Shown here: piece after piece, positions 9,714-25,841 of the stretch
Layout of the letters: every line of letters starts with the position of its first letter
How positions within the stretch are numbered: position 1 is the first letter of the stretch
DNA from: a virus
Length of the DNA: 64,000 bases
Strand: one strand, 5' to 3'
Virus record (IMG/VR): IMGVR_UViG_3300044701_004608
Span: 32,001-96,000 of that record
Notes under the pieces: model-generated
Seen by the model: only the letters and a program-made list of their open reading frames with translations
Told to the model about the DNA's origin: nothing
Databases searched by the model: none
Translations under genes and position numbers: made by a program

Positions 9714-10759
9714 CGGTTCCACTGCCTTATGGTTATCTTGGTAGACCCATCGCCGGTGACCCGTGTATGTAGGTCGTTGTCGTTGATGGATATGCTGTAA
9801 GTGACATTGTCTTGTAGTTCGCCCGACTTCACTGAGATAGTGTTGCCTTTTTCGGGATCGTGACGCCAGTAATAGTTGCGACCTTTTTCGTTGCCGCATT
9901 CGTTGAATGGGTAACAGTTGTCGTTCCGGCTGGATTCGTTGCTTTTATTCTCGGCACTGGCATCTACCAATAACTTCGTAGAGGACTCATCCGATTTCGC
10001 TTTCTGATCCCGGGCCGATTTCTTATCTTCATCCTCTCGGGCTTGTTCTTTCTCGCGATCTTTTTCTTTAAGTTGTTCATCAATACCATCGGGCTTGACC
10101 AAGTTCATGTCGTTGTTGATCAAAGCTATGTCGGGAATGACCGCTACCGGTGGTAGTGGCGCGGCATCTGAAGAAGCTACATATGTGGCCGTGAACGCTT
10201 GGTTCAAGCTCACCATGCCTGCGGCCGTTTCCACATCGATCTGGCCCACTGTACAGTTGTCAGCGATGCGATAGTTGTTAGTATTACGAGGATCTTCACA
10301 GCTGGGCAATAAAACGACCACAGAGCGTCCTGCTTCATCCACGGTCATGGAGAAGTCAGTGCCGCGCACAGCGATGGTGGCCGTGGGTGTCTTGAGGTTC
10401 ACTGCCTGTCGGTTGGTCTTGGCTATCTGGCCCGAAGTGTATTTCACTGTGCCTAGTGCCACTTTCATGGCCAGTTTGCCAGCATCGCTGGCCTTAGGGT
10501 CAAACACGAAATCGTCGATGACCAATCGACTGTTGGCTGTTATCTTTACCTTTGTGTTGTCTTGGAAAGTCAACCCGGCTTCAGTGGCCGATCCCACTAC
10601 TACGAGATCGTTGCTTTCGATGCCGGACTGTTTTGTTATCTGTGATGTAGCAGAACCGCGTTTGACGCTCGCGTTGGCACCTTTGAGTTCAGTTACCGAG
10701 CCTATAGAAGCCCATGAACTCACAGATGCCAACAGTAATAACGAGCATATCCAACGCAT
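9710..10759 (-). CDS. FecR-domain secreted protein
   Basis: Signal peptide; FQDNTKVKITANSRLVID, LKTPTATIAVRGTDF. Confidence 0.88.
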   Translation of the reverse strand: MRWICSLLLLASVSSWASIGSVTELKGANASVKRGSATSQITKQSGIESNDLVVVGSATEAGLTFQDNTKVKITANSRLVIDDFVFDPKASDAGKLAMKVALGTVKYTSGQIAKTNRQAVNLKTPTATIAVRGTDFSMTVDEAGRSVVVLLPSCEDPRNTNNYRIADNCTVGQIDVETAAGMVSLNQAFTATYVASSDAAPLPPVAVIPDIALINNDMNLVKPDGIDEQLKEKDREKEQAREDEDKKSARDQKAKSDESSTKLLVDASAENKSNESSRNDNCYPFNECGNEKGRNYYWRHDPEKGNTISVKSGELQDNVTYSISINDNDLHTRVTGDGSTKITIRQWNR

Positions 10760-11424
10760 TAGTTTCCAGTGATCACTGTCACTGTGTTCGAGTTACCGTT
10801 AGTGTTGATGCTGACGATAGTATCAATGCTTCCCGACTGTGTGACGGAATGCGTATTAGAAGTTCCTGTGACTGCGGCTGTCAATGTATGGCCACCACCT
10901 GCTGATGTGCCCGACATTGTATGTGTGAACTGGTTGCTGTCGCCCAGGATGGTGATCGAGGCTGAACTGTTGTCAGTCTGGATGTCCTGAGATACTGTGT
11001 TGCTGTTGCCAGTGATGCTAAGGCTGTTAGTGATGGCAGAACCTTTGATGGTCTGTGTCACTGTGTTGCTGTCGCCTTGTATAGTTGTAGTGCTTGTCAC
11101 TCCTGTACATGCAGTAGTTCCGTCACCGCAAGTCATGGTGATGGCGTTAGTGTCGCCAGTCACTGACTTAGTGATAGTGTTGCCAGAACCTGTGACAGCG
11201 TAAGCCAGCGTGTTTGAATCGCCGGTTTGTGTCACGGTCATTGAGTTGTTGCTGCCAGTGATGGTAGCGTCAACGCTGGAAGTACCCACAGAGTTGAGCG
11301 TACCAACTTGTGTTATGCTGATGGTGTTACTGCCACCAACCTGCTCGATATACACTGAGTTTCCTGCATGGGCCACGGTGAATGACATCGCCACCGCTAA
11401 ACCTATCAGTGTTCTTTTAAACAT
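10759..11424 (-). CDS. Curlin-repeat (CsgA/CsgB-like) secreted protein
   Basis: Signal peptide ending AHA; repeated N-x5-Q-x-G-x2-N units; Thr/Ser/Asn/Gly-rich. Confidence 0.75.
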   Translation of the reverse strand: MFKRTLIGLAVAMSFTVAHAGNSVYIEQVGGSNTISITQVGTLNSVGTSSVDATITGSNNSMTVTQTGDSNTLAYAVTGSGNTITKSVTGDTNAITMTCGDGTTACTGVTSTTTIQGDSNTVTQTIKGSAITNSLSITGNSNTVSQDIQTDNSSASITILGDSNQFTHTMSGTSAGGGHTLTAAVTGTSNTHSVTQSGSIDTIVSINTNGNSNTVTVITGN

Positions 11425-11466
11425 GCTTTATCAGAGGCGTTAAACCTCCGCTCCTTCATTTTATGT

Positions 11467-12618
11467 TCAATCGTCTAAACGACTGAATCTGCTTTTATGT
11501 ACCCAACCGGTATTGCCGCTATATTCGACGAATACCCAGTCTCGTTTCTTTTCTAGGACCACGACACGCGACCCGGGTTCAAGCCTTGTTGTCTTTTCAC
11601 TGTCCGTGATAGGCTGGCTCCGCAGGTTAGACCAATCTTTGATCTCACCTGTTTTTTTGATGGGCACAGCTTTCTGTTGAGGTACTACTTTTTCAGTTGT
11701 GGGTGAGGGCGGAGTTTCTTTTTCAATTTTCTTTTCTGTTACTGGAGAAGCCGCAGGAGCGGGTGCTACTTTGACTTCTTCTTTTTTTGGTTCAACCTTG
11801 GGTGTTTCTGTCAATGGTGTAGCCACGACCACTGGTTTACGATACTGCCAATGTCCTTTTTTCTCGCCTTGCTTGATCATCTCGATCACGGCGGCGTGGA
11901 TGGCTAGTTGTACTGCGCTGTTCATGCTTTCGTTGCTGGCGGCACCAGTTTCAAGTTCCAGTGCTTTAGTGCCAAGATCATAGAAGCGTAGCACGCCCAT
12001 CTTGTCTTGGAACGACACTACGGTTTTCTTGATCGTGACTGCTGTGAGAACTTCACCGCTGGCCACAGAAACAGCACGGAGACTAATCACGATCTCGTCC
12101 TGGCGATATTCTGTGCTGGCCCCGATGCCTAATAATCTAGCGCCCGAGCCACCACTGATCACGTTGCTGTCATAACCTACGATACCACCTTCAAGTATCA
12201 GTCCTGCGAACACCATAGGAGGCAATGCCTGTGCGTCCTTGCCTTGATAGAGTTCGCGCATCTGGCGTATGAGCTGGCGTTCCTTGACGATGTTGTCTAG
12301 GCCGCCACGCTCGACTACTTTAAACCAACTGCCGTTGCCTACTTCCTGTAAGCTACGGATGAGATAGTTGTCAGCACCTTGTGTCACAGCCGAGCTCAAT
12401 GATGCTAGAGTCTGGCTGGCTTTGCGTTGACCTGTTAAGTCACGGAAACTGTAGACGGCCACGGTGATAGCACCACCTTGTGGTGGTAACAGTTGTTCTT
12501 GGTTCAATAATACTGGTTGTGTGGCTTCAGGTTGATCGATGGTACGAACTTGTTTAGAAATCGTAGAGCATCCAGCCAACATGGATATCACTGCGAGTGC
12601 TAGGATAGTCTTCTTCAT
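11467..12618 (-). CDS. csgG: CsgG curli secretion lipoprotein fused to a C-terminal SH3b domain
   Basis: Lipobox LAGC; VAVYSFRDLTGQRK, WFKVVERGGLDNIVKERQLIR, EGGIVGYD; C-terminal NLRSQP..DWVFV..GWV. Confidence 0.92.
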   Translation of the reverse strand: MKKTILALAVISMLAGCSTISKQVRTIDQPEATQPVLLNQEQLLPPQGGAITVAVYSFRDLTGQRKASQTLASLSSAVTQGADNYLIRSLQEVGNGSWFKVVERGGLDNIVKERQLIRQMRELYQGKDAQALPPMVFAGLILEGGIVGYDSNVISGGSGARLLGIGASTEYRQDEIVISLRAVSVASGEVLTAVTIKKTVVSFQDKMGVLRFYDLGTKALELETGAASNESMNSAVQLAIHAAVIEMIKQGEKKGHWQYRKPVVVATPLTETPKVEPKKEEVKVAPAPAASPVTEKKIEKETPPSPTTEKVVPQQKAVPIKKTGEIKDWSNLRSQPITDSEKTTRLEPGSRVVVLEKKRDWVFVEYSGNTGWVHKSRFSRLDD

Positions 12619-13076
12619 GGCGCGATCCATCCAAAGTCACCGATGGGCACAGACACGGTAGTGACATTACCATTGTTGTCTGTGATAGTCATGGTGATGG
12701 TCTGTCCATCACTGGTGTAACTGATAGATCCGCCATTGAAACTGAAAGAACCATTGACTTGTGTGCCTTGGCCTTCGAATAGTTTTTCTGTGATCTGGCG
12801 TGCGAGTTCGTTGTAGACGCGGCTTTCCAAGTTGGCAATGAATCGTGCCATAGTGGTGTTTTTGGCGTCTTGCTCGGCTTTCAAGTCAGCGGCTTTCTTC
12901 TCGGCTGCGATAGCGAGTTTGCGGCTGAGTTCTTGATTATAGATAGTCAGGACATGGCTCGAGTAGCCGATGCCAGAAAATGCGGGTGAGTTAAATTGAT
13001 GTACTAATTCACTTGCTACTATACTGCTCGATATCACACAGCTCACGACCGCTATTGTAATTTTTTTTGCGATCAT
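12615..13076 (-). CDS. csgF: CsgF curli assembly protein
   Basis: Signal peptide then SELVHQFNSPAFSG; FIANLESR; ITDNNGNVTTVSVP. Confidence 0.88.
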   Translation of the reverse strand: MIAKKITIAVVSCVISSSIVASELVHQFNSPAFSGIGYSSHVLTIYNQELSRKLAIAAEKKAADLKAEQDAKNTTMARFIANLESRVYNELARQITEKLFEGQGTQVNGSFSFNGGSISYTSDGQTITMTITDNNGNVTTVSVPIGDFGWIAP

Positions 13077-19415: not shown

Positions 19416-19625
19416 TCAACCGAGAATAGTAGGTTTCCACGCCAAACACCAGTATTCTGGACGTACTGGTGCGAACCAGCGACGGCACTGCCCAGAATCG
19501 AAATAGCCGCAATTACCACAGGCTTGGCTTCCCGGTGTTACACCGGGCACACCCGAAAGCTGATATTCGGGCGGCAGCTTTGGGCATATAGGTGTGCCAT
19601 CGGGATACAGCCTCTGGTCACTCAC
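19416..19625 (-). CDS. HiPIP-like 4-Cys small protein
   Basis: C-x2-C-x7-C-x12-C spacing ending in WC..W: CGNCGYFDSGQCRRWFAPVRPEYWCLAW. Confidence 0.6.
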   Translation of the reverse strand: MSDQRLYPDGTPICPKLPPEYQLSGVPGVTPGSQACGNCGYFDSGQCRRWFAPVRPEYWCLAWKPTILG

Positions 19626-20400
19626 TGGACGCCTCCGTGAAACGATCTGGGAACTGCAGGACTATGCCTTTGGCGAATATGTCCGAAAACGCTGGCGTGC
19701 CATCATACTGTCCGGCCAGGATGATACGGTGCGCTGTGTCCACCGCTTCGATATCGGCAGGCCAGTTTTTGCTGACGCGGGCACGACATTGTTCGATCCA
19801 GGCCTGGAGCACTTTGCCAAAGATGGCCTTGACCACATCGGCGGGCCAGTGCTGGGGGTTGGCTTTTTGTGCGAAGTTGGCGAAATCGTCGAGTTCGGCA
19901 TCGACTTTCTTGACTAAGGCATCGATGTTGCCGCCTTTCTTGAGCGTCTGCACGATCTCTAGTACTGTGAGTACAAACGATCTCATGTATTGTGCCAACT
20001 GTTTGCTGGCTACTAATCCATAGTAGGGGCGAACCGAGTCACCGATCTCGTCGATGTTTTGGAACAGTTGCTCTTCGACCACGGCCAAGTCTTCGCCGTT
20101 GTGCAAGGCGCTGGTGATGTAGTTGCGCAGTCTCCACAGGTATCTAGCCCAGATGGTGCGCTGGTCCATGCGCCAAGTCACAGCGGGTTCTGTGTTGAAC
20201 ACCGATATCGTGCCGGGCACATACATGGCTGTTTCTGTGACCACTACGCCGTTGCCGTTGGGGTTACCGTTGCCGTTGGTGTAGCCGTTGCCGTTAGTGT
20301 AGCCGTTGCCGTTGAGTTTGACGCCGTTGATGGCTTCCAGGGCCAAGGGATGATCAAAGTGTTCTTCTTTGATGGTGTGTGTTATGAGTTTGTAAACCAT
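19618..20400 (-). CDS. Helical-bundle protein B (paralog of 24341..24955)
   Basis: RTIWARYLWRLRNYI..LFQNIDEIG...PYYG..A..N.QHWP..FSDIFAKGIVLQFPDRF; AAGGAG SD. Confidence 0.75.
   Translation of the reverse strand: MVYKLITHTIKEEHFDHPLALEAINGVKLNGNGYTNGNGYTNGNGNPNGNGVVVTETAMYVPGTISVFNTEPAVTWRMDQRTIWARYLWRLRNYITSALHNGEDLAVVEEQLFQNIDEIGDSVRPYYGLVASKQLAQYMRSFVLTVLEIVQTLKKGGNIDALVKKVDAELDDFANFAQKANPQHWPADVVKAIFGKVLQAWIEQCRARVSKNWPADIEAVDTAHRIILAGQYDGTPAFSDIFAKGIVLQFPDRFTEASSE
20248..20313 (-). repeat. NGNGYT-type tandem coding repeat
   Basis: NGNGYTNGNGYTNGNGNPNGNG; repeated GCCGTT units. Confidence 0.85.
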
Positions 20401-20415
20401 TTTAAATCTCCTTTG

Positions 20416-20937
20416 TTAAGATTGTTGTACATTGGCGATGACCCACCATGCGCCGTTTTGTCCCAGCAGAGTCACTGACTCATAGGGTTGTTGCAATTCA
20501 AGTTCTTGATCTCTGCCTTCGAGATCGTTGCCACCTTGTGGGATGATCTTGGTCTTGTAGCCGCCGGGGCCACGCTGGTCCTTGATGATCAGGATCCTAC
20601 AGATGGCACCTATCACTGGCAGTTTGATATCCACTGTCTTGCCCACGGATGGTTTGACGACTCCGATGTAGTAGTCATCGCTTTGTACCGTGTAGTCGGC
20701 GTTGACATAGCGTGTGACGCAGTTGTGATTACCCCCGCCACCGTTGGCGCTCAATGTACCATCGGCGGCCACTGTGAGACCTGTGCCGACCTTGACCACG
20801 CCCAGATCAGTGGTGGTGGCGATGTCAGCATCGATTTCAAAGTCCACGTTGCCAGCAGGCGCTGTAGGATCCGGAGGTATGCTTTGTTTCAAGGCTCGCC
20901 CTGCTCGCACTGCGGTGGGTGCGCGGAAGTAACTCAT
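20416..20937 (-). CDS. Small beta-rich fibre/coat-like protein
   Basis: ATTTDLGVVKVGTGL plus YTVQSDDYYIGV..LP..IIKD domain shared with neighbours. Confidence 0.75.
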   Translation of the reverse strand: MSYFRAPTAVRAGRALKQSIPPDPTAPAGNVDFEIDADIATTTDLGVVKVGTGLTVAADGTLSANGGGGNHNCVTRYVNADYTVQSDDYYIGVVKPSVGKTVDIKLPVIGAICRILIIKDQRGPGGYKTKIIPQGGNDLEGRDQELELQQPYESVTLLGQNGAWWVIANVQQS

Positions 20938-20946
20938 GATCGCTCC

Positions 20947-21339
20947 TTAGACCACGTGCCATTCCGTGCCACGGAAGATGAAACTCACTGATCCGTAAGT
21001 CACGGTGTTGACGAAAGTGGCAGATCCATCGATGGTCTCGCCGCCAGTACCTTGGATGGTGATGTTGCCGGATCCTGGGCCCAGTTCGTCTTTGATGATG
21101 AACATCTTGCCATCGGTGCCAGTGGGCAGCGTGATGGTAGTGGCCACAGCCGAGTTCACTCCGATGTAGTAGTCATCGTTGGTGGCCGCGTAGTCCACTG
21201 TGACCACTGTAGTATTGTAGATGGGATTGCTGGGCGAGCCGCCTGTGACAGAGATCACGCCCCCGGTGATGGTTATTCCTGTGCCGGCCTGTACTAGGCC
21301 GAAATCTGTGGTTGATGCTAAAGGTACTTTGTATGACAT
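20947..21339 (-). CDS. Small beta-rich fibre/coat-like protein
   Basis: ASTTDFGLVQAGTGI plus DDYYIGVN..TLP..IIKDE..TIDG..EWHVV. Confidence 0.75.
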   Translation of the reverse strand: MSYKVPLASTTDFGLVQAGTGITITGGVISVTGGSPSNPIYNTTVVTVDYAATNDDYYIGVNSAVATTITLPTGTDGKMFIIKDELGPGSGNITIQGTGGETIDGSATFVNTVTYGSVSFIFRGTEWHVV

Positions 21340-21351
21340 GGTGTTTTCCTT

Positions 21352-21906
21352 TTATAGTTGTATGATGGTGCATCTCACGCTGGGTGTCGCTGGTCGGATG
21401 GGCCCAACTTGTGCAGGTGTAGTCAACAATCGCATGTTGACATCAGTGCTTTGCCAAGCGACCTGTATGTTGTCGCCGGCGTTTAACGCCACGGTGAAAT
21501 TCCACGACGCCACCAACACTCCCACGGTGCCTTCCACTGACACCTGAGAGTTGGTATTGGGATAGGCTGTGCCATTGCGTATCAGCCATAGGTCTGCGAG
21601 ATCCGTCCCAGCGTCGGTCTTGTCGATCTGTATCACGAACTGGAAGTTGTAGTTGGCATCCTTGCTCACAGTGATCTGGGAGCCACCCACCAATGTGATG
21701 CCCACGTTGATGGCAGAGTTGTCAAATGTGATGATGTTGACAGCGTTGGCCACTGGGTTGGTCTGTGTCTGTGTGCTGAAAAAGTAGGCTTGATCCAGCA
21801 AGGCCACCGGCACCACGCTGATCACCCCATCAGTGACAGACAGTCCGGAGCCGGACTGTACCACTCCATAGTCACCGGCGGTGCTGATGGGCTGCTTGTA
21901 GGTCAT
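21352..21906 (-). CDS. BclA C-terminal/C1q-like jelly-roll protein
   Basis: STAGDYGVVQSGSGL leader; ITFD, ITV....YNFQF, LWLIRNG, LNAGDNIQV. Confidence 0.65.
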   Translation of the reverse strand: MTYKQPISTAGDYGVVQSGSGLSVTDGVISVVPVALLDQAYFFSTQTQTNPVANAVNIITFDNSAINVGITLVGGSQITVSKDANYNFQFVIQIDKTDAGTDLADLWLIRNGTAYPNTNSQVSVEGTVGVLVASWNFTVALNAGDNIQVAWQSTDVNMRLLTTPAQVGPIRPATPSVRCTIIQL

Positions 21907-22340
21907 TACACCACGTTCCATTCCGTGCCGTTGAACACCAGGGTTATGCTGGCATAGTCGGTGTTGAGCACATAAGTGGCAGCACCATCTATGGTGTTGC
22001 CGTTGCCGGACACTGTTATGTTGTTGGTGTTGGCGTCACCGTCGATGTCCTTGATGATCAAGACCTGTCCCACGATGGGACTGGCTGGCAGCACCACAGT
22101 AGCTGGTGCCGCTATGTTCACGCCCAGATAGTAGTCTCCGGGTTGCACGGCGTAGGGCGTGGAATTCACTATCGTGACATTGACCGGGCTGGGACTGCCA
22201 GTGAATGTGCCTAGATTGATGAAGTCATTTCCCCAGCCACCAATGCTGTTGTTGAGTTGTGACACTGGCGCAGGGCGTGCTACGGGTAAGAGACCCGGGC
22301 GGCGTGGGCGGAATATTATCGGGCTGTAGTACTGGAACAT
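21906..22340 (-). CDS. Small beta-rich fibre/coat-like protein with Pro/Arg N-terminus
   Basis: YAVQPGDYYLGVN..VLP..IIKD..TIDG..EWNVV. Confidence 0.75.
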   Translation of the reverse strand: MFQYYSPIIFRPRRPGLLPVARPAPVSQLNNSIGGWGNDFINLGTFTGSPSPVNVTIVNSTPYAVQPGDYYLGVNIAAPATVVLPASPIVGQVLIIKDIDGDANTNNITVSGNGNTIDGAATYVLNTDYASITLVFNGTEWNVV

Positions 22341-22730
22341 TTATTTTTCCTTGTTTTCGTCAATGATGTCTTGTGCGGTCAACACCTGTTTGACCTTGTT
22401 GATTTTTTTGGTCACTTCGTCCAAATTGGAGAATAGTGGGCCGGCCGCGGGTGCTTGTTCCACTGGTTCTTCAACTTCTGATTCTTTGTCGTCAACGACG
22501 AACTTGAGAAGTTGTTCGGCCCGCTCTAAAATCTGTGCTTCTGTGGGATAAGGTGCGAATGGTGGATATGGCAAGCGTTCCCGGCGAGTTTTCCACACCA
22601 GATCAGCATCTGCCAACCACTTGTTGTGATCTTCGGCGCGCTTGTTGATGTATTCTTCGTTGAGGAGGGTGCGCGCCATCCTCAAGACCTCCATCCTATG
22701 TTTGGCTAGTTCAATGTCCTTGTCTATCAT
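22341..22730 (-). CDS. Hypothetical protein
   Basis: RMEVLRMAR..L..YPTEAQILERAEQL..FV. Confidence 0.7.
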   Translation of the reverse strand: MIDKDIELAKHRMEVLRMARTLLNEEYINKRAEDHNKWLADADLVWKTRRERLPYPPFAPYPTEAQILERAEQLLKFVVDDKESEVEEPVEQAPAAGPLFSNLDEVTKKINKVKQVLTAQDIIDENKEK

Positions 22731-22930
22731 TGTTGTCCCCAATCACTGCGGTTCCATAATCTTTCATGTATGATATAACTGATAGAGTTGATCACCAGTG
22801 TGGCAGCTCCTATCGATAGTCCTTTCCAGGGATCTCCAGTCACTACCCAACCCACTGTGCTGTTAGTGATCATCATCCAGATCCTCCAGGTCAGAGTTTT
22901 GACTGCTGTGCGTGTCAGTGTGTCTGTCAT
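22727..22930 (-). CDS. DUF2061-like small membrane protein
   Basis: RTAVKTLTWRI ... YIIHERLWNR..WG. Confidence 0.8.
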   Translation of the reverse strand: MTDTLTRTAVKTLTWRIWMMITNSTVGWVVTGDPWKGLSIGAATLVINSISYIIHERLWNRSDWGQQ

Positions 22931-23178
22931 TGCCAGCGATCTAGCACGATAATCAGCACAGAGATCAAGGCTGTGGCTATTGAAACTGCTGTACCCACTA
23001 CCTTGATCGTCTCTTGTCGATGGTGGTCACGATATTCTTTGAGCCGGGCCAGATCGTGTTCGGCCTCATCTATTCGTTTCTCGAGTGCCTGGTATCGTTC
23101 ATGGCACAATTCTACATGTGCCTCAAGGTTGTCGCGCTCGATGCCGAGATACTTTTTGGCTGTGACCACAAAACTCAT
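22927..23178 (-). CDS. Coiled-coil plus C-terminal TM protein (XhlA/holin-like), paralog of 40644..40913
   Basis: LEAHVELCHERY motif. Confidence 0.7.
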   Translation of the reverse strand: MSFVVTAKKYLGIERDNLEAHVELCHERYQALEKRIDEAEHDLARLKEYRDHHRQETIKVVGTAVSIATALISVLIIVLDRWQ

Positions 23179-23182
23179 TGTG

Positions 23183-23443
23183 TTAACCCACTACAGTTGG
23201 TGTAGAAGTCTGCGCAACGGTATCCATGTCGCCGGTGTTTATCAAACGCTGACCTGACACTGCACTACGGTTGTAGTTGCCTACAAATGTGTTGTTGGCA
23301 CTTTGTACCGCGCCTACCCCAGGATAACCGTATCCCACACCGTATCCGCCAAATCCATAATTTGGCCATCCCCAGCCGCCCCATGGGTAACGACGGTGAG
23401 CAAAGCTACCGTAGAAGGGGTGGTGATGATATAAACTAAACAT
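23183..23443 (-). CDS. Gly/Tyr/Trp-rich 86-aa protein with conserved C-terminal motif
   Basis: AAGGAG SD; MFSLYHHH..WGGWGWPNYGFGGYG..SAVSGQRLINTGDMDTVAQTSTPTVVG. Confidence 0.75.
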   Translation of the reverse strand: MFSLYHHHPFYGSFAHRRYPWGGWGWPNYGFGGYGVGYGYPGVGAVQSANNTFVGNYNRSAVSGQRLINTGDMDTVAQTSTPTVVG

Positions 23444-23456
23444 ATTCAATCTCCTT

Positions 23457-23489
23457 GTTAAAAGACGAGCAGGGATCACCCGCTCGTCT
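23457..23489 (-). terminator. Hairpin/terminator inside the cassette
   Basis: AGACGAGCGGG-TGAT-CCC(T)GCTCGTCT followed by a short T run on the minus strand. Confidence 0.6.
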
Positions 23490-23497
23490 ACTCTCAA

Positions 23498-23644
23498 TTA
23501 CCAGTAATAGGGACCGTAACCCCCACCGTAGTAGGGATAACCGTATCCATATCCCCAATATGGGTAGGCTAAGCCCCCATAGTAAGGATAACCAATACCG
23601 GCTGCCAGGTAAGGCCTGGCGTAACCCCAGGGCCTATAGAACAT
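23498..23644 (-). CDS. 48-aa Tyr/Gly/Pro-rich peptide (not in ORF track)
   Basis: GGAGG SD; MFYRPWGYARPYLAAGIGYPYYGGLAYPYWGYGYGYPYYGGGYGPYYW*. Confidence 0.75.
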   Translation of the reverse strand: MFYRPWGYARPYLAAGIGYPYYGGLAYPYWGYGYGYPYYGGGYGPYYW

Positions 23645-23659
23645 GGTCTCTTCCTCCGA

Positions 23660-24223
23660 TTAAGTGATCGAAGTTGGAGTCGATGTCTGTGTAGTACCTG
23701 TCATGGTTCCGGTATTGACCAGACCTTGGCTAGAGATTGCACTGTTCAGTGCGTTGATAGCGGCTACGCTGTTAGCGCTCTGGTAAGCACTGACAGCACC
23801 ACCGTAGGCTAGACCTAGACCACCATAGAGACCGTTAAGACCTGTCAGAGCTGTGTTGGTATTGATCAGAGCCGTGTTGAGGTTTTCACGGTTGATGCCG
23901 TTGATGAGCTGGCGTGTGAGTTCAGCTTGACCCATCACAGCTTCGCGTGTGCGAGCAGCTTCTTGCATGACGAGTGCGTCAGTGCGAGCGGCGGCCAACA
24001 TAGCGGCTGTGTTAGCATCATTTACTGCCTGCTTGGTAGCAGCCAGTGCCTGGTCCGTGTGGAATGCTGTTTGCATAGCACGGTTGTTGATGTCGTTGCT
24101 TTGTGCGACTTGAAGTTTGTAGTTTTCGAAAACGCTGTCAGAAACTTTTGTGTTTACGGCCTGGATCTGTGCGCTCAGGGCGTAGAAAGGATCTGTTGTG
24201 AATGCTCCTGTTACATCTGCCAT
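23660..24223 (-). CDS. Ala/Thr/Asn/Gln-rich helical structural-type protein
   Basis: Strong AAGGAG SD and leader hairpin; no Cys or Trp; C-terminal SAISSQGLVNTGTMTGTTQTSTPTSIT. Confidence 0.8.
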   Translation of the reverse strand: MADVTGAFTTDPFYALSAQIQAVNTKVSDSVFENYKLQVAQSNDINNRAMQTAFHTDQALAATKQAVNDANTAAMLAAARTDALVMQEAARTREAVMGQAELTRQLINGINRENLNTALINTNTALTGLNGLYGGLGLAYGGAVSAYQSANSVAAINALNSAISSQGLVNTGTMTGTTQTSTPTSIT

Positions 24224-24293
24224 TTTAGTAGTCTCCTTGTAAATGGTGTTATACCGGACGTCCCGGTATAATTACTTAGAAGCAAATGGCCAA

Positions 24294-24320
24294 GAAAAAG
24301 CCAGGCTTGAGCCTGGCCTA
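24294..24320 (-). terminator. Intrinsic terminator
   Basis: GCCAGGC-TCAA-GCCTGGC followed by T6. Confidence 0.75.
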
Positions 24321-24340: not shown

Positions 24341-24955
24341 TCACGTTGCTATGGCAAATCTATCGGGACTCTGTTGTACTATCCCCGAAGCAAACACATG
24401 GGCCAATTGTCTAGCTGTGTCGAAGCATCTGTCAGTCGCAGTGAGATCCTCGTTCCAGTTTTTAATCAACCTCATATTGATCTGCGAAAACCATGTCTCT
24501 ACTAAATCCATCAATTGATTTTTGATATTGAGCATGTTCCATGCTCCGGGATTGAGTGTAGACATGAGATCAAATAATTCAGATGCACTGTTTTTTAATT
24601 TAGTCACTAAATCCTGCACGAACATGTCTGTGTTGATATTAAAATTTACCGGAGGTTTCTTGATATAATCTAACAACTGTATCATTTCAGTAGTCTGTGC
24701 CTCCATGATAGTACGCCATCGCTGTGCTGAATCAGTACCATAGTAATCATTGATGGTATCGAAAAAATCAGAGATGTTAGCCATGACCCATTCTCTCGTG
24801 ACTGGCATCTCAGGCATCCCATTCATTACAGCTACTAGGTGGCTACGATTTCGCCAGACATAATCGTTCCAGAGGTCGCGGGACCTGGCATGGAAATTGC
24901 CTACTTTGGCAGGATCTTCTTGGAAGTATTGTGTTGTGGTGACTTTGTAAACCAT
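24341..24955 (-). CDS. Helical-bundle protein A (paralog of 19618..20400)
   Basis: MVYK start; RDLWNDYVWRNRSHL..DYYG..LNPGAWN..LAHVFASGIVQQSPDRF. Confidence 0.75.
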   Translation of the reverse strand: MVYKVTTTQYFQEDPAKVGNFHARSRDLWNDYVWRNRSHLVAVMNGMPEMPVTREWVMANISDFFDTINDYYGTDSAQRWRTIMEAQTTEMIQLLDYIKKPPVNFNINTDMFVQDLVTKLKNSASELFDLMSTLNPGAWNMLNIKNQLMDLVETWFSQINMRLIKNWNEDLTATDRCFDTARQLAHVFASGIVQQSPDRFAIAT

Positions 24956-24957
24956 TT

Positions 24958-25638
24958 TTATAACCTCGCTCCATTGTTGACTGCCAGGGCCAGTTGTGTA
25001 CGGTTCCTGACACCGTATCGTTTCAAGATGGCACTGACATGTATTTTCACTGTGCTTTCTGATATGTTGAGTTGGCGTGCGATGGCTTTGTTTGACAAGC
25101 CTCGTTCGCACAACAGTTTCTGTACTTCTTGCTGACGATCTGTGAGTGTGACTTCGTCGCTGTGCGATTTGGTGTCTGCTTTAGAAGTCTGCTCCATACA
25201 TTCACGGGGCCAGAAATCCTGACCTTTGGTGAACATCTCTTCATAGGCTCGCTGATTCAGATAATAGTCGAAATCGTCGATGTGTGGGATCACTCCCGAG
25301 ATGCCCATGTCCTTGAATGCTTTGACCTGTTGCCGTGTCAAGGGAGTCCTTAATAATACCAGGAATTTGCTATCCACTTCGCCGAATCGACAATCAAGGA
25401 ATATCTTGAAACCCAGCACGAGGTCCCGGAATCGTTCGTTAAATTCATCGACGATGTTTTGATCGATGGAGATGAACTTGGGGGGCGAGTCGAGATGGGA
25501 GATGAACCCAAACGCTTGCCTGACATTGTTGGCCGACAAGGGTTGGAACCCAAACTGTTTGCCTCGGTCATTGAATACCTGTGATTGTTTTAGATTCGCA
25601 GAGATCCTCAATCCCAGTGGTGTGTTTTCCGTGTGCAT
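24958..25638 (-). CDS. NarL/LuxR-family transcriptional regulator with degenerate receiver-like N-terminus
   Basis: [45 protein letters not shown]; start MHTENT with AAAGGA SD. Confidence 0.88.
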
Positions 25639-25841
25639 TAGAATTCCTTTTCTTACATAGATACTTACATCGTAGAAGCCAAGGAAAACTAGTACTTGGA
25701 CGCGGGTCATACTTCATTAGGGTCTCGGTATGACTGTTGTATACAAAGATACACGATATTTTTTCACAGTCAATACTCCCGGGAGTATGTATTTCGTCGT
25801 GCGGCACAACACGCATTAAGATATTTTGACACATCCACCAC

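Follow-up and report, generated by a model that had tools for sequence, protein, structure and literature searches.

In the E. coli pap (papA), Rhodobacter puf (pufBA) and cyanobacterial cpcBA operons, the major subunit is encoded first and an intercistronic hairpin comes next, and the minor components are made from read-through or from a longer, less stable transcript. Meanwhile, small proteins of unusual composition accompany larger structural partners in other systems. The high glycine-tyrosine keratin-associated proteins are small (5–9 kDa) and accompany a keratin rod with Gly/aromatic segments. Mussel foot protein 3, Tyr/Gly-rich adhesive peptides and FUS-type segments act through multivalent aromatic contacts or Tyr-derived cross-links. 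In the Bacillus spore coat, the small Tyr-rich proteins CotC and CotU are deposited together with fibre or collagen-like proteins (the BclA nap).

Here we describe a phage locus that recalls these systems in its gene order and in the composition of its products. The window is the whole stretch of DNA that was analysed (64,000 nucleotides of the IMG/VR record IMGVR_UViG_3300044701_004608). On its minus strand there is a cassette in which a 187-aa protein (A), a 48-aa Gly/Tyr-rich micro-protein (B), a terminator-like hairpin and an 86-aa protein (C) follow each other (Table 1). A full-text literature search for Gly/Tyr-rich phage proteins returned nothing relevant.

Table 1. Features of the cassette and of a curli-like gene set in the window. 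The last column gives the number of related loci, out of 29, with a match in reciprocal BLAST.
Feature	Position	Strand	Basis or remark	Loci
GerE/LuxR-type HTH protein heading the cassette	24958..25638	(-)	Pfam GerE, 7.9e-16	25
Promoter-like motif before the LuxR-type gene	25662-25682		motif search
Helical-bundle cassette protein	24341..24955	(-)	paralogue at 19618-20400	15-24 (helical-bundle protein or proteins)
Hairpin and T-run closing the preceding LuxR/helical-protein unit	24298..24319	(-)	terminator scan; just 5' of the A promoter region
Promoter-like motif TTGGCC-N9-TAAGTA before gene A	24273..24293	(-)	motif search
5' leader hairpin, 8-bp arms (TATACCGG / CCGGTATA), 5-nt loop	24250..24270	(-)	3' of the promoter-like motif, 5' of the SD of A
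Gene A (187-aa Ala/Thr/Asn/Gln-rich protein)	23660..24223	(-)	long helix predicted, disordered Q/N/T/G tail	29
GxGxAYGG segment of A (residues ~132-146)	23780-23830		co-occurrence with the B core
C-terminal tail of A	23660-23740	(-)	changes in step with the C tail between phages
Shine-Dalgarno (SD) of gene B, GGAGG	23653..23657	(-)	sequence reading; all related loci have an SD-like site in this position
Gene B (48-aa Gly/Tyr/Pro/Trp micro-protein)	23498..23644	(-)	translation, conservation across related loci	26
RGYLAAGIGYPY core of B	23580-23615		co-occurrence with the A segment
Terminator-like hairpin, 11-bp stem, 5-nt loop, short U-run	23460..23489	(-)	folding, covariation
SD of gene C, AAGGAG	23451-23456
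Gene C (86-aa protein; ATG at 23443)	23183..23443	(-)	N-terminal half Gly/Tyr/Trp-rich like B; A-like tail	24
C-terminal tail of C	23183-23260	(-)	changes in step with the A tail between phages
Rest of the cassette, including a DUF2061 membrane protein and the next three entries	20416..23178	(-)
83-aa tail-anchored coiled-coil protein				20
133-aa protein				21
Four small tail-fibre-like proteins			Phage_depo_C beta-sandwich	about 20
69-aa Cys-rich protein ending the cassette	19416-19625
CsgF-like protein	12615-13076	(-)
CsgG with C-terminal SH3 domain	11467-12630	(-)
Secreted curlin-repeat protein with signal peptide	10759-11424	(-)

Gene B and its family

Gene B starts with an ATG at 23644-23642, 8 nt after its GGAGG, and ends with a stop codon at 23500-23498. 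Its start lies 15 nt after the stop (TAA) of gene A and, in the window, in the same frame. The composition is extreme: the 48 residues include 16 Tyr, 12 Gly, 6 Pro, 4 Ala, 3 Trp, 2 Arg and 2 Leu, the string GYPYYGG occurs twice, acidic residues and Lys are absent and the net charge is about +2. With so few cleavage sites, trypsin would release a single unwieldy peptide of 38 residues. Gly and Tyr together make up 58% of the peptide, and likewise of the B family. The earlier note had described this ORF with its GGAGG, its Tyr, Gly, Pro and Trp counts and its GYPYYGG repeats, and translation reproduced both coordinates and counts. We found neither a signal peptide nor a hydrophobic segment in B. 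Searches of the peptide against Pfam (E ≤ 0.1) and PHROGs (E ≤ 0.01) returned no family, and an ESM Atlas search gave no usable match. The earlier note had also called the peptide unannotated. This holds for the ORF track that it used, but public gene calls contain B and its relatives as hypothetical proteins. For instance, UFOVP116_301 is a B relative that adjoins an A homologue, UFOVP116_300. Thus, the gene has already been called publicly, although it was never characterised.

A total of 29 related loci were taken from IMG/VR with the A protein as the query (50–99% identity). In 27 of them, a Gly/Tyr-rich ORF of 41–76 aa with an SD-like site follows 15–25 nt 3' of A; where A is present in tandem, the ORF was counted after the second copy. 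As for the two loci without such an ORF, one is cut by the contig end and the other is rearranged. Both the start ATG and the SD site are conserved across the related loci. The frame singled out by the earlier note is therefore kept in its relatives, and this in-frame conservation places ORF B far beyond chance.

The B peptides align on a core, R-G-Y-[LM]-[AG]-A-G-[IL]-G-Y-P-Y, and the Gly/Tyr/Pro tail beyond it expands and contracts. At the DNA level, nearly all synonymous codons are used in this core; for example, its Arg is written as AGG, AGA, CGT, CGC or CGA. Across 15 pairwise comparisons of B, 282 codons differed synonymously only and 141 non-synonymously. In addition, a profile search of 5.8 billion proteins found at least 138 members of the B family (48–74 aa), all of them named hypothetical. 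Among the 120 family proteins listed, 115 carry the core and 69 contain Cys. The family as a whole is 33% Gly, 25% Tyr and 9% Pro, and Asp and Glu are almost absent. These patterns show that gene B is a genuine protein-coding gene under selection at the protein level.

The A-B transcription unit

The LuxR-type gene and the helical-protein gene are closed by a hairpin of 9 pairs, 6 of them G-C, with the tail TTTCTT. The promoter-like motif of gene A comes next. In its general form (TTGGCY-N9-TAAGTA), this motif has two exact matches in the 64-kb window, one before A and the other before the LuxR-type gene, where 0.42 would be expected. The second match lies inside a longer ORF, and the ATG at 25638 is thus the likely start of the LuxR-type gene. 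In most relatives, the A genes have TAAGTA/TAACTA-type boxes on their 5' side and then leader hairpins of varied sequence; where A is duplicated, most relatives have such a box and hairpin 5' of both copies. The HTH of the LuxR-type protein also scores as sigma region 4, and the protein could for this reason act on the -35-like TTGGC box.

At the other end of the unit, the terminator-like hairpin starts 10 nt after the stop of gene B. Its stem-loop spans 23489-23463 with one G-U pair and is followed by UUU, or by UUUU if the last stem base is included. The 60-nt spacer folds at -20.2 kcal/mol and the hairpin alone at about -17 kcal/mol. A terminator-like hairpin at this place had been proposed in the earlier note, and its 11-bp stem and U-run were recovered here. 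In every locus examined, a stem-loop with a T-run separates B from the following gene, the stem sequences being widely different; in one locus (L004) it is concealed within an over-long ORF call. RNAalifold on the hairpin alignment gave 9 consensus pairs, and two-sided compensatory changes were seen at all 9. Furthermore, 90.4% of the alignment cells were paired, against 76% in shuffled alignments and 21–52% in slid-partner controls, and the covariation score of 0.65 (0.36 in shuffles) was reached by none of 500 shuffles. These results show that the structure of the hairpin, and not its sequence, is conserved.

An Rfam candidate in the same place, the DUF2815 RNA (RF03084) at 23441-23494, was rejected, as it scored 28.7 bits, below the gathering threshold of 41.2, and had no match in 8 related loci (E ≤ 1). 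The primary sequence agrees surprisingly well around the hairpin and the SD. We take it as a chance likeness of two arrangements of hairpin, SD and ATG.

The start of C is about 20 nt from the hairpin, and a promoter scan found no promoter-like site between B and C. Gene C and the later genes would thus depend on read-through, and A and B should then outnumber the downstream products. Taken together, the features support A-B as a self-contained unit, which would run from its own promoter-like box and leader hairpin to the terminator-like hairpin. The earlier note had claimed that both proteins are made in excess over the downstream genes, as major structural subunits would be. The bracketed unit, the conserved hairpin and the lack of an internal promoter fit the claim of excess; partial termination at the hairpin is what we infer, and A and B are putative major structural subunits. 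A different idea, that A and B are made as one read-through fusion, was rejected: the two genes are in frame in the window, but the gaps of 15–25 nt in the relatives are often not multiples of three.

The main task of the hairpin could instead be to stabilise the 3' end or to provide a processing site, as in the pufBA and papA mRNAs, so that the A-B segment of the mRNA outlives the rest. The T-runs after the stem vary from 4 to 7 across loci, and that of the window is the shortest (4 U), for which reason a simple terminator scan did not call the hairpin. In the window, the hairpin may terminate weakly or not at all, and it might serve mRNA stability only. In addition, the 5' leader hairpin brackets the unit from the other side, as is typical of stabilised mRNAs, and a stem conserved with covariation would suit a stabiliser as well. 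However, in most relatives the stem is followed at once by 5–7 T, as is characteristic of intrinsic terminators. Stabilising and terminating are also not mutually exclusive, and both predict the same stoichiometry. We regard a mainly stabilising hairpin as unlikely, and a hairpin that steps down transcription after B is the reading used below.

Proteins A and C, the cassette and its carriers

The AlphaFold2 (AF2) model of A is a single helix over residues 12–164 with a disordered tail (pLDDT 79, and above 90 over most of the helix). Its pTM is 0.31, a low value that is expected for a lone rod. There is no clear heptad periodicity in A. The A family has 768 or more homologues, all viral or metagenomic hypothetical proteins, with a mean column identity of 67%. 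Between loci, A remains 65–99% identical while the neighbouring cassette proteins fall to 25–30%. Neither A nor C matched Pfam or PHROGs. A profile of A against PDB sequences gave noise only, a Foldseek search of A against viral structures gave no match, and the ESM Atlas returned only viral hypothetical clusters.

Protein C combines features of both partners. Its first 45 residues are 58% Gly/Tyr/Trp/Pro, like B, and its C-terminal 27 or so residues are similar to the A tail. Both tails read ..[VT][IV]GAGA[VI]GG.. in L004, L007 and L015, and elsewhere both read ..NTG....G... In addition, 20 loci have both the GxGxAYGG segment of A and the core of B, 21 have neither, and none has just one of them. 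The segment and the RGYLAAGIGYPY core are a candidate contact between A and B, although their co-occurrence tracks clade boundaries and may thus go back to no more than one or two events in evolution. Tandem copies of gene A are present in L003, L008, L009, L010, L011, L012, L025, L028 and L029, and in these loci B lies 3' of the last A copy only.

Two known kinds of filament subunit were considered for these proteins and rejected. Flagellin resembles A in composition and in INTN/QSAN strings, but Flagellin_N is absent from the genome even at E ≤ 10. Curlin subunits (CsgA/CsgB) were rejected for A, B and C, which have no Curlin_rpt match and no Sec signal peptide, no signal-like segment being visible at their N-termini. 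Elsewhere in the window there is a curli/type VIII secretion-like gene set (10759-13076, minus strand), and L027 and L029 have weak curlin-like matches 3–4 kb beyond A. In 5 related records, themselves only 29–52% complete, CsgG was not found.

Among the other cassette members, the paralogue of the helical-bundle protein has an AF2 model with pLDDT above 94 for residues of about 70–250. Foldseek and VIA-align searches with the helical protein gave generic helical bundles only (Z ≤ 9.4, below the meaningful level for bundles) and no enzyme-like fold match, and a profile of the same protein against PDB sequences gave noise only. A 144-aa mini-fibre (21906-22340) begins like C (MF.YY.P...R..) and has a tail-like ..FINLGTFTG.. 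ahead of the beta-sandwich; it resembles a C-type adaptor to which a fibre tip has been joined. The 69-aa protein at the end of the cassette is Cys-rich (CGNC...C...WC), conserved in 5 related loci and without a family match. Among the cassette genes, none was recognised as peroxidase, laccase or tyrosinase-like. The analysis turned up nothing for or against the dityrosine cross-linking that the earlier note had suggested. The genes flanking the cassette vary between loci.

The genome is that of a phage, with DnaB, a primase, ribonucleotide reductase, Mtd_N fibres and a SleB-type hydrolase. Completeness is put at about 32% for its 111.8-kb record, and related records of 98–139 kb are rated 29–52% complete. 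In addition, the exact B peptide is also present on a contig of 339,769 bp. The carriers are thus giant phages, uncultured and from fresh water. The closest relatives of the helicase (48%) are in the group of Pseudomonas PA5oct and Agrobacterium Atu_ph07, and cultured phages gave no match to the cassette (blastn) or to A (tblastn). Among 185,579 species genomes, A had one match only, on the 10.5-kb contig CAZXGO010000088.1 (L030) of a Chitinophagales MAG; this copy is 90% identical and truncated by the contig end. The contig is either a mis-binned phage contig or a hint of Chitinophagales/Bacteroidota hosts, which we treat as a weak lead.

An exhaustive profile search also found longer A-like proteins (200–450 aa), whose helical repeats are apolipoprotein-like and which share the C-terminal region and tail of A. 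Their loci come from contigs as long as 400 kb, and 33 of these distant loci were examined. In 15 of them, a peptide of 42–57 aa, about half Tyr and with Pro, Arg and paired Cys, lies within 2.5 kb downstream. For example, L034:5001-7619 is a plus-strand island among minus-strand genes. It encodes, in this order, a 275-aa A-like protein, a collagen-repeat (GPP) mini-fibre with a DDYYIGV head, a 252-aa protein that is papain-like by eye, a 43-aa peptide of which about half is Tyr, and an 82-aa C-like protein. In cultured phages, a distant A-like protein matched only in a repeat region near an APSE tail-fibre gene. Since Tyr-rich peptides occur in the distant cassettes as well, Tyr richness is an old, selected property of the module, one that outlasts any particular sequence in it.

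Possible function and likeness to known systems

Our proposal is that A and B form a bracketed operon with a step-down hairpin, in which B is a sticky partner of A in a fibrous assembly. We lean towards this explanation as a whole, by a small degree. The A-B transcript would start at the promoter-like box and leader hairpin and end at the hairpin that resembles a Rho-independent terminator. This hairpin would set the step-down, leaving A and B abundant and the downstream proteins scarcer. A would be a long helical rod with a flexible Q/N/T/G tail, and C has a tail of the same kind. We infer that B binds A and has a structural role as matrix or glue. As a sticky aromatic matrix or cement, B would hold the GxGxAYGG segment of A through its core, and its variable Gly/Tyr tail would supply multivalent Tyr contacts. 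C could be a hybrid adaptor, and the fibre-like proteins scarcer additions. Together, A, B, C and the mini-fibres would build a fibrous assembly of a giant phage, located on the virion or inside the infected cell. The fibre-like cassette members favour a location on the virion. The dedicated LuxR-type regulator, the two membrane proteins and the island-like behaviour of the cassette favour an accessory intracellular structure.

A bolder form of this proposal is a self-contained and self-regulated kit for a composite fibre or matrix in freshwater giant phages, with A as the rod, B and C as aromatic or cross-linked cement, and collagen-like or tail-fibre-like proteins as tips. We hold it only tentatively, as an outcome that we would not expect but would not be surprised by. 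From the regulatory anatomy, no other product of this widespread accessory cassette is predicted to be as abundant as the A-B pair, and knowing what the pair builds would give a role to a block of giant-phage "dark matter". Work on A and B could also reveal a new self-assembling biomaterial. Furthermore, small low-complexity genes are routinely discarded as artefacts; B, with its extreme composition, is clearly selected as a protein across hundreds of contigs from uncultured giant phages.

B may also be a diffusible effector. As a Gly/Tyr-rich peptide it could act as an antimicrobial, in lysis or in host takeover, or it could phase-separate in sticker-spacer fashion and organise a condensate in the infected cell. 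Its small size, extreme composition and positive net charge would suit such a role. In addition, the cassette has its own regulator and lies near lysis genes in this genome, and in distant phages it is an island on the strand opposite to its neighbours. However, B has no signal peptide or hydrophobic segment, and in the loci examined it never occurs without A. Lysis genes next to the cassette are a feature of the two closest loci only (L001 and L002), and the other members of the cassette are fibre-like. We consider an effector role improbable, and the sticky-partner reading is kept.

With one third of its codons being Tyr and a terminator-like hairpin so soon after its stop, B could also be read as a leader peptide that senses Tyr-tRNA and controls a terminator before the Tyr-rich gene C. 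The word "attenuating" in the earlier note, taken in this classical sense, is not supported. The amino-acid sequence is kept through synonymous change well beyond Tyr, including the Gly, Ala, Ile, Pro and Arg residues of the core. No antiterminator was found either: pairing between the 5' arm of the stem and the final 90 nt of B was not stronger than with shuffled sequence (duplex z from -1.75 to +2.5 across 24 loci, and +2.4 in the window). Moreover, B stands 3' of gene A and not at the 5' end of the transcript, and its length varies between 41 and 76 aa. An attenuator of the trpL/pheL type has antiterminator pairing and a dispensable peptide; these comparisons find neither for B, and weakly refute such an assignment. 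We judge a leader-peptide function very improbable.

Finally, it is scarcely credible that ORF B is a chance frame or the shadow of an antisense gene, with the RNA alone mattering: the antisense frame is indeed open (70 aa in the window; 17 of 28 loci), but this is a by-product of Tyr and Gly codons, whose complements are stop-free, the differences in B fall 89, 114 and 363 times at sense positions 1, 2 and 3 although the wobble of the open antisense frame would be sense position 2, and a chance frame would not explain the conserved SD site and ATG.

The sticky-partner reading of A and B can now be set against the known systems. All of them are analogies to the A-B module and not memberships, and the family-level searches gave no match. 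As in the papA, pufBA and cpcBA operons, the A-B genes come first and a stable stem-loop stands right after them. However, there is no homology to these operons, and the phage pair consists of a long-helix protein and a Gly/Tyr micro-protein.

The Q/N/G/T-rich terminal motif, short and co-varying, that A and C of one cluster share is similar to the amyloid-signalling or co-polymerisation tail motifs of HET-s and BASS systems. B itself has no such tail.

In size (about 45–50 residues) and in the dominance of Tyr, Gly, Pro/Asn, Arg and Trp, B resembles mussel foot protein 3. Unlike mussel foot protein 3 and FUS-type stickers, B has a strictly conserved 12-residue core, and no DOPA-forming or Tyr-oxidising enzyme was recognised in the phage cassette.

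The spore coat offers a further parallel, as a Tyr-rich peptide shares a distant cassette with a collagen-repeat mini-fibre, much as CotC and CotU are found with BclA. Nevertheless, the proteins have no Pfam match to coat families, and the module is essentially phage-only.

Meanwhile, B is comparable to the high Gly-Tyr keratin-associated proteins in its Gly and Tyr content and in the occasional Cys of its family, and its neighbour A is predicted to be long-helical, with a Gly/aromatic segment. This likeness is compositional only, B being without a Pfam match; the carrier is a bacterial virus, and A shows no heptad periodicity. If the composite kit is real, it would be the viral counterpart of keratin with its keratin-associated proteins, or of the spore-coat nap, and with B a viral high-Gly/Tyr matrix protein would be described for the first time.
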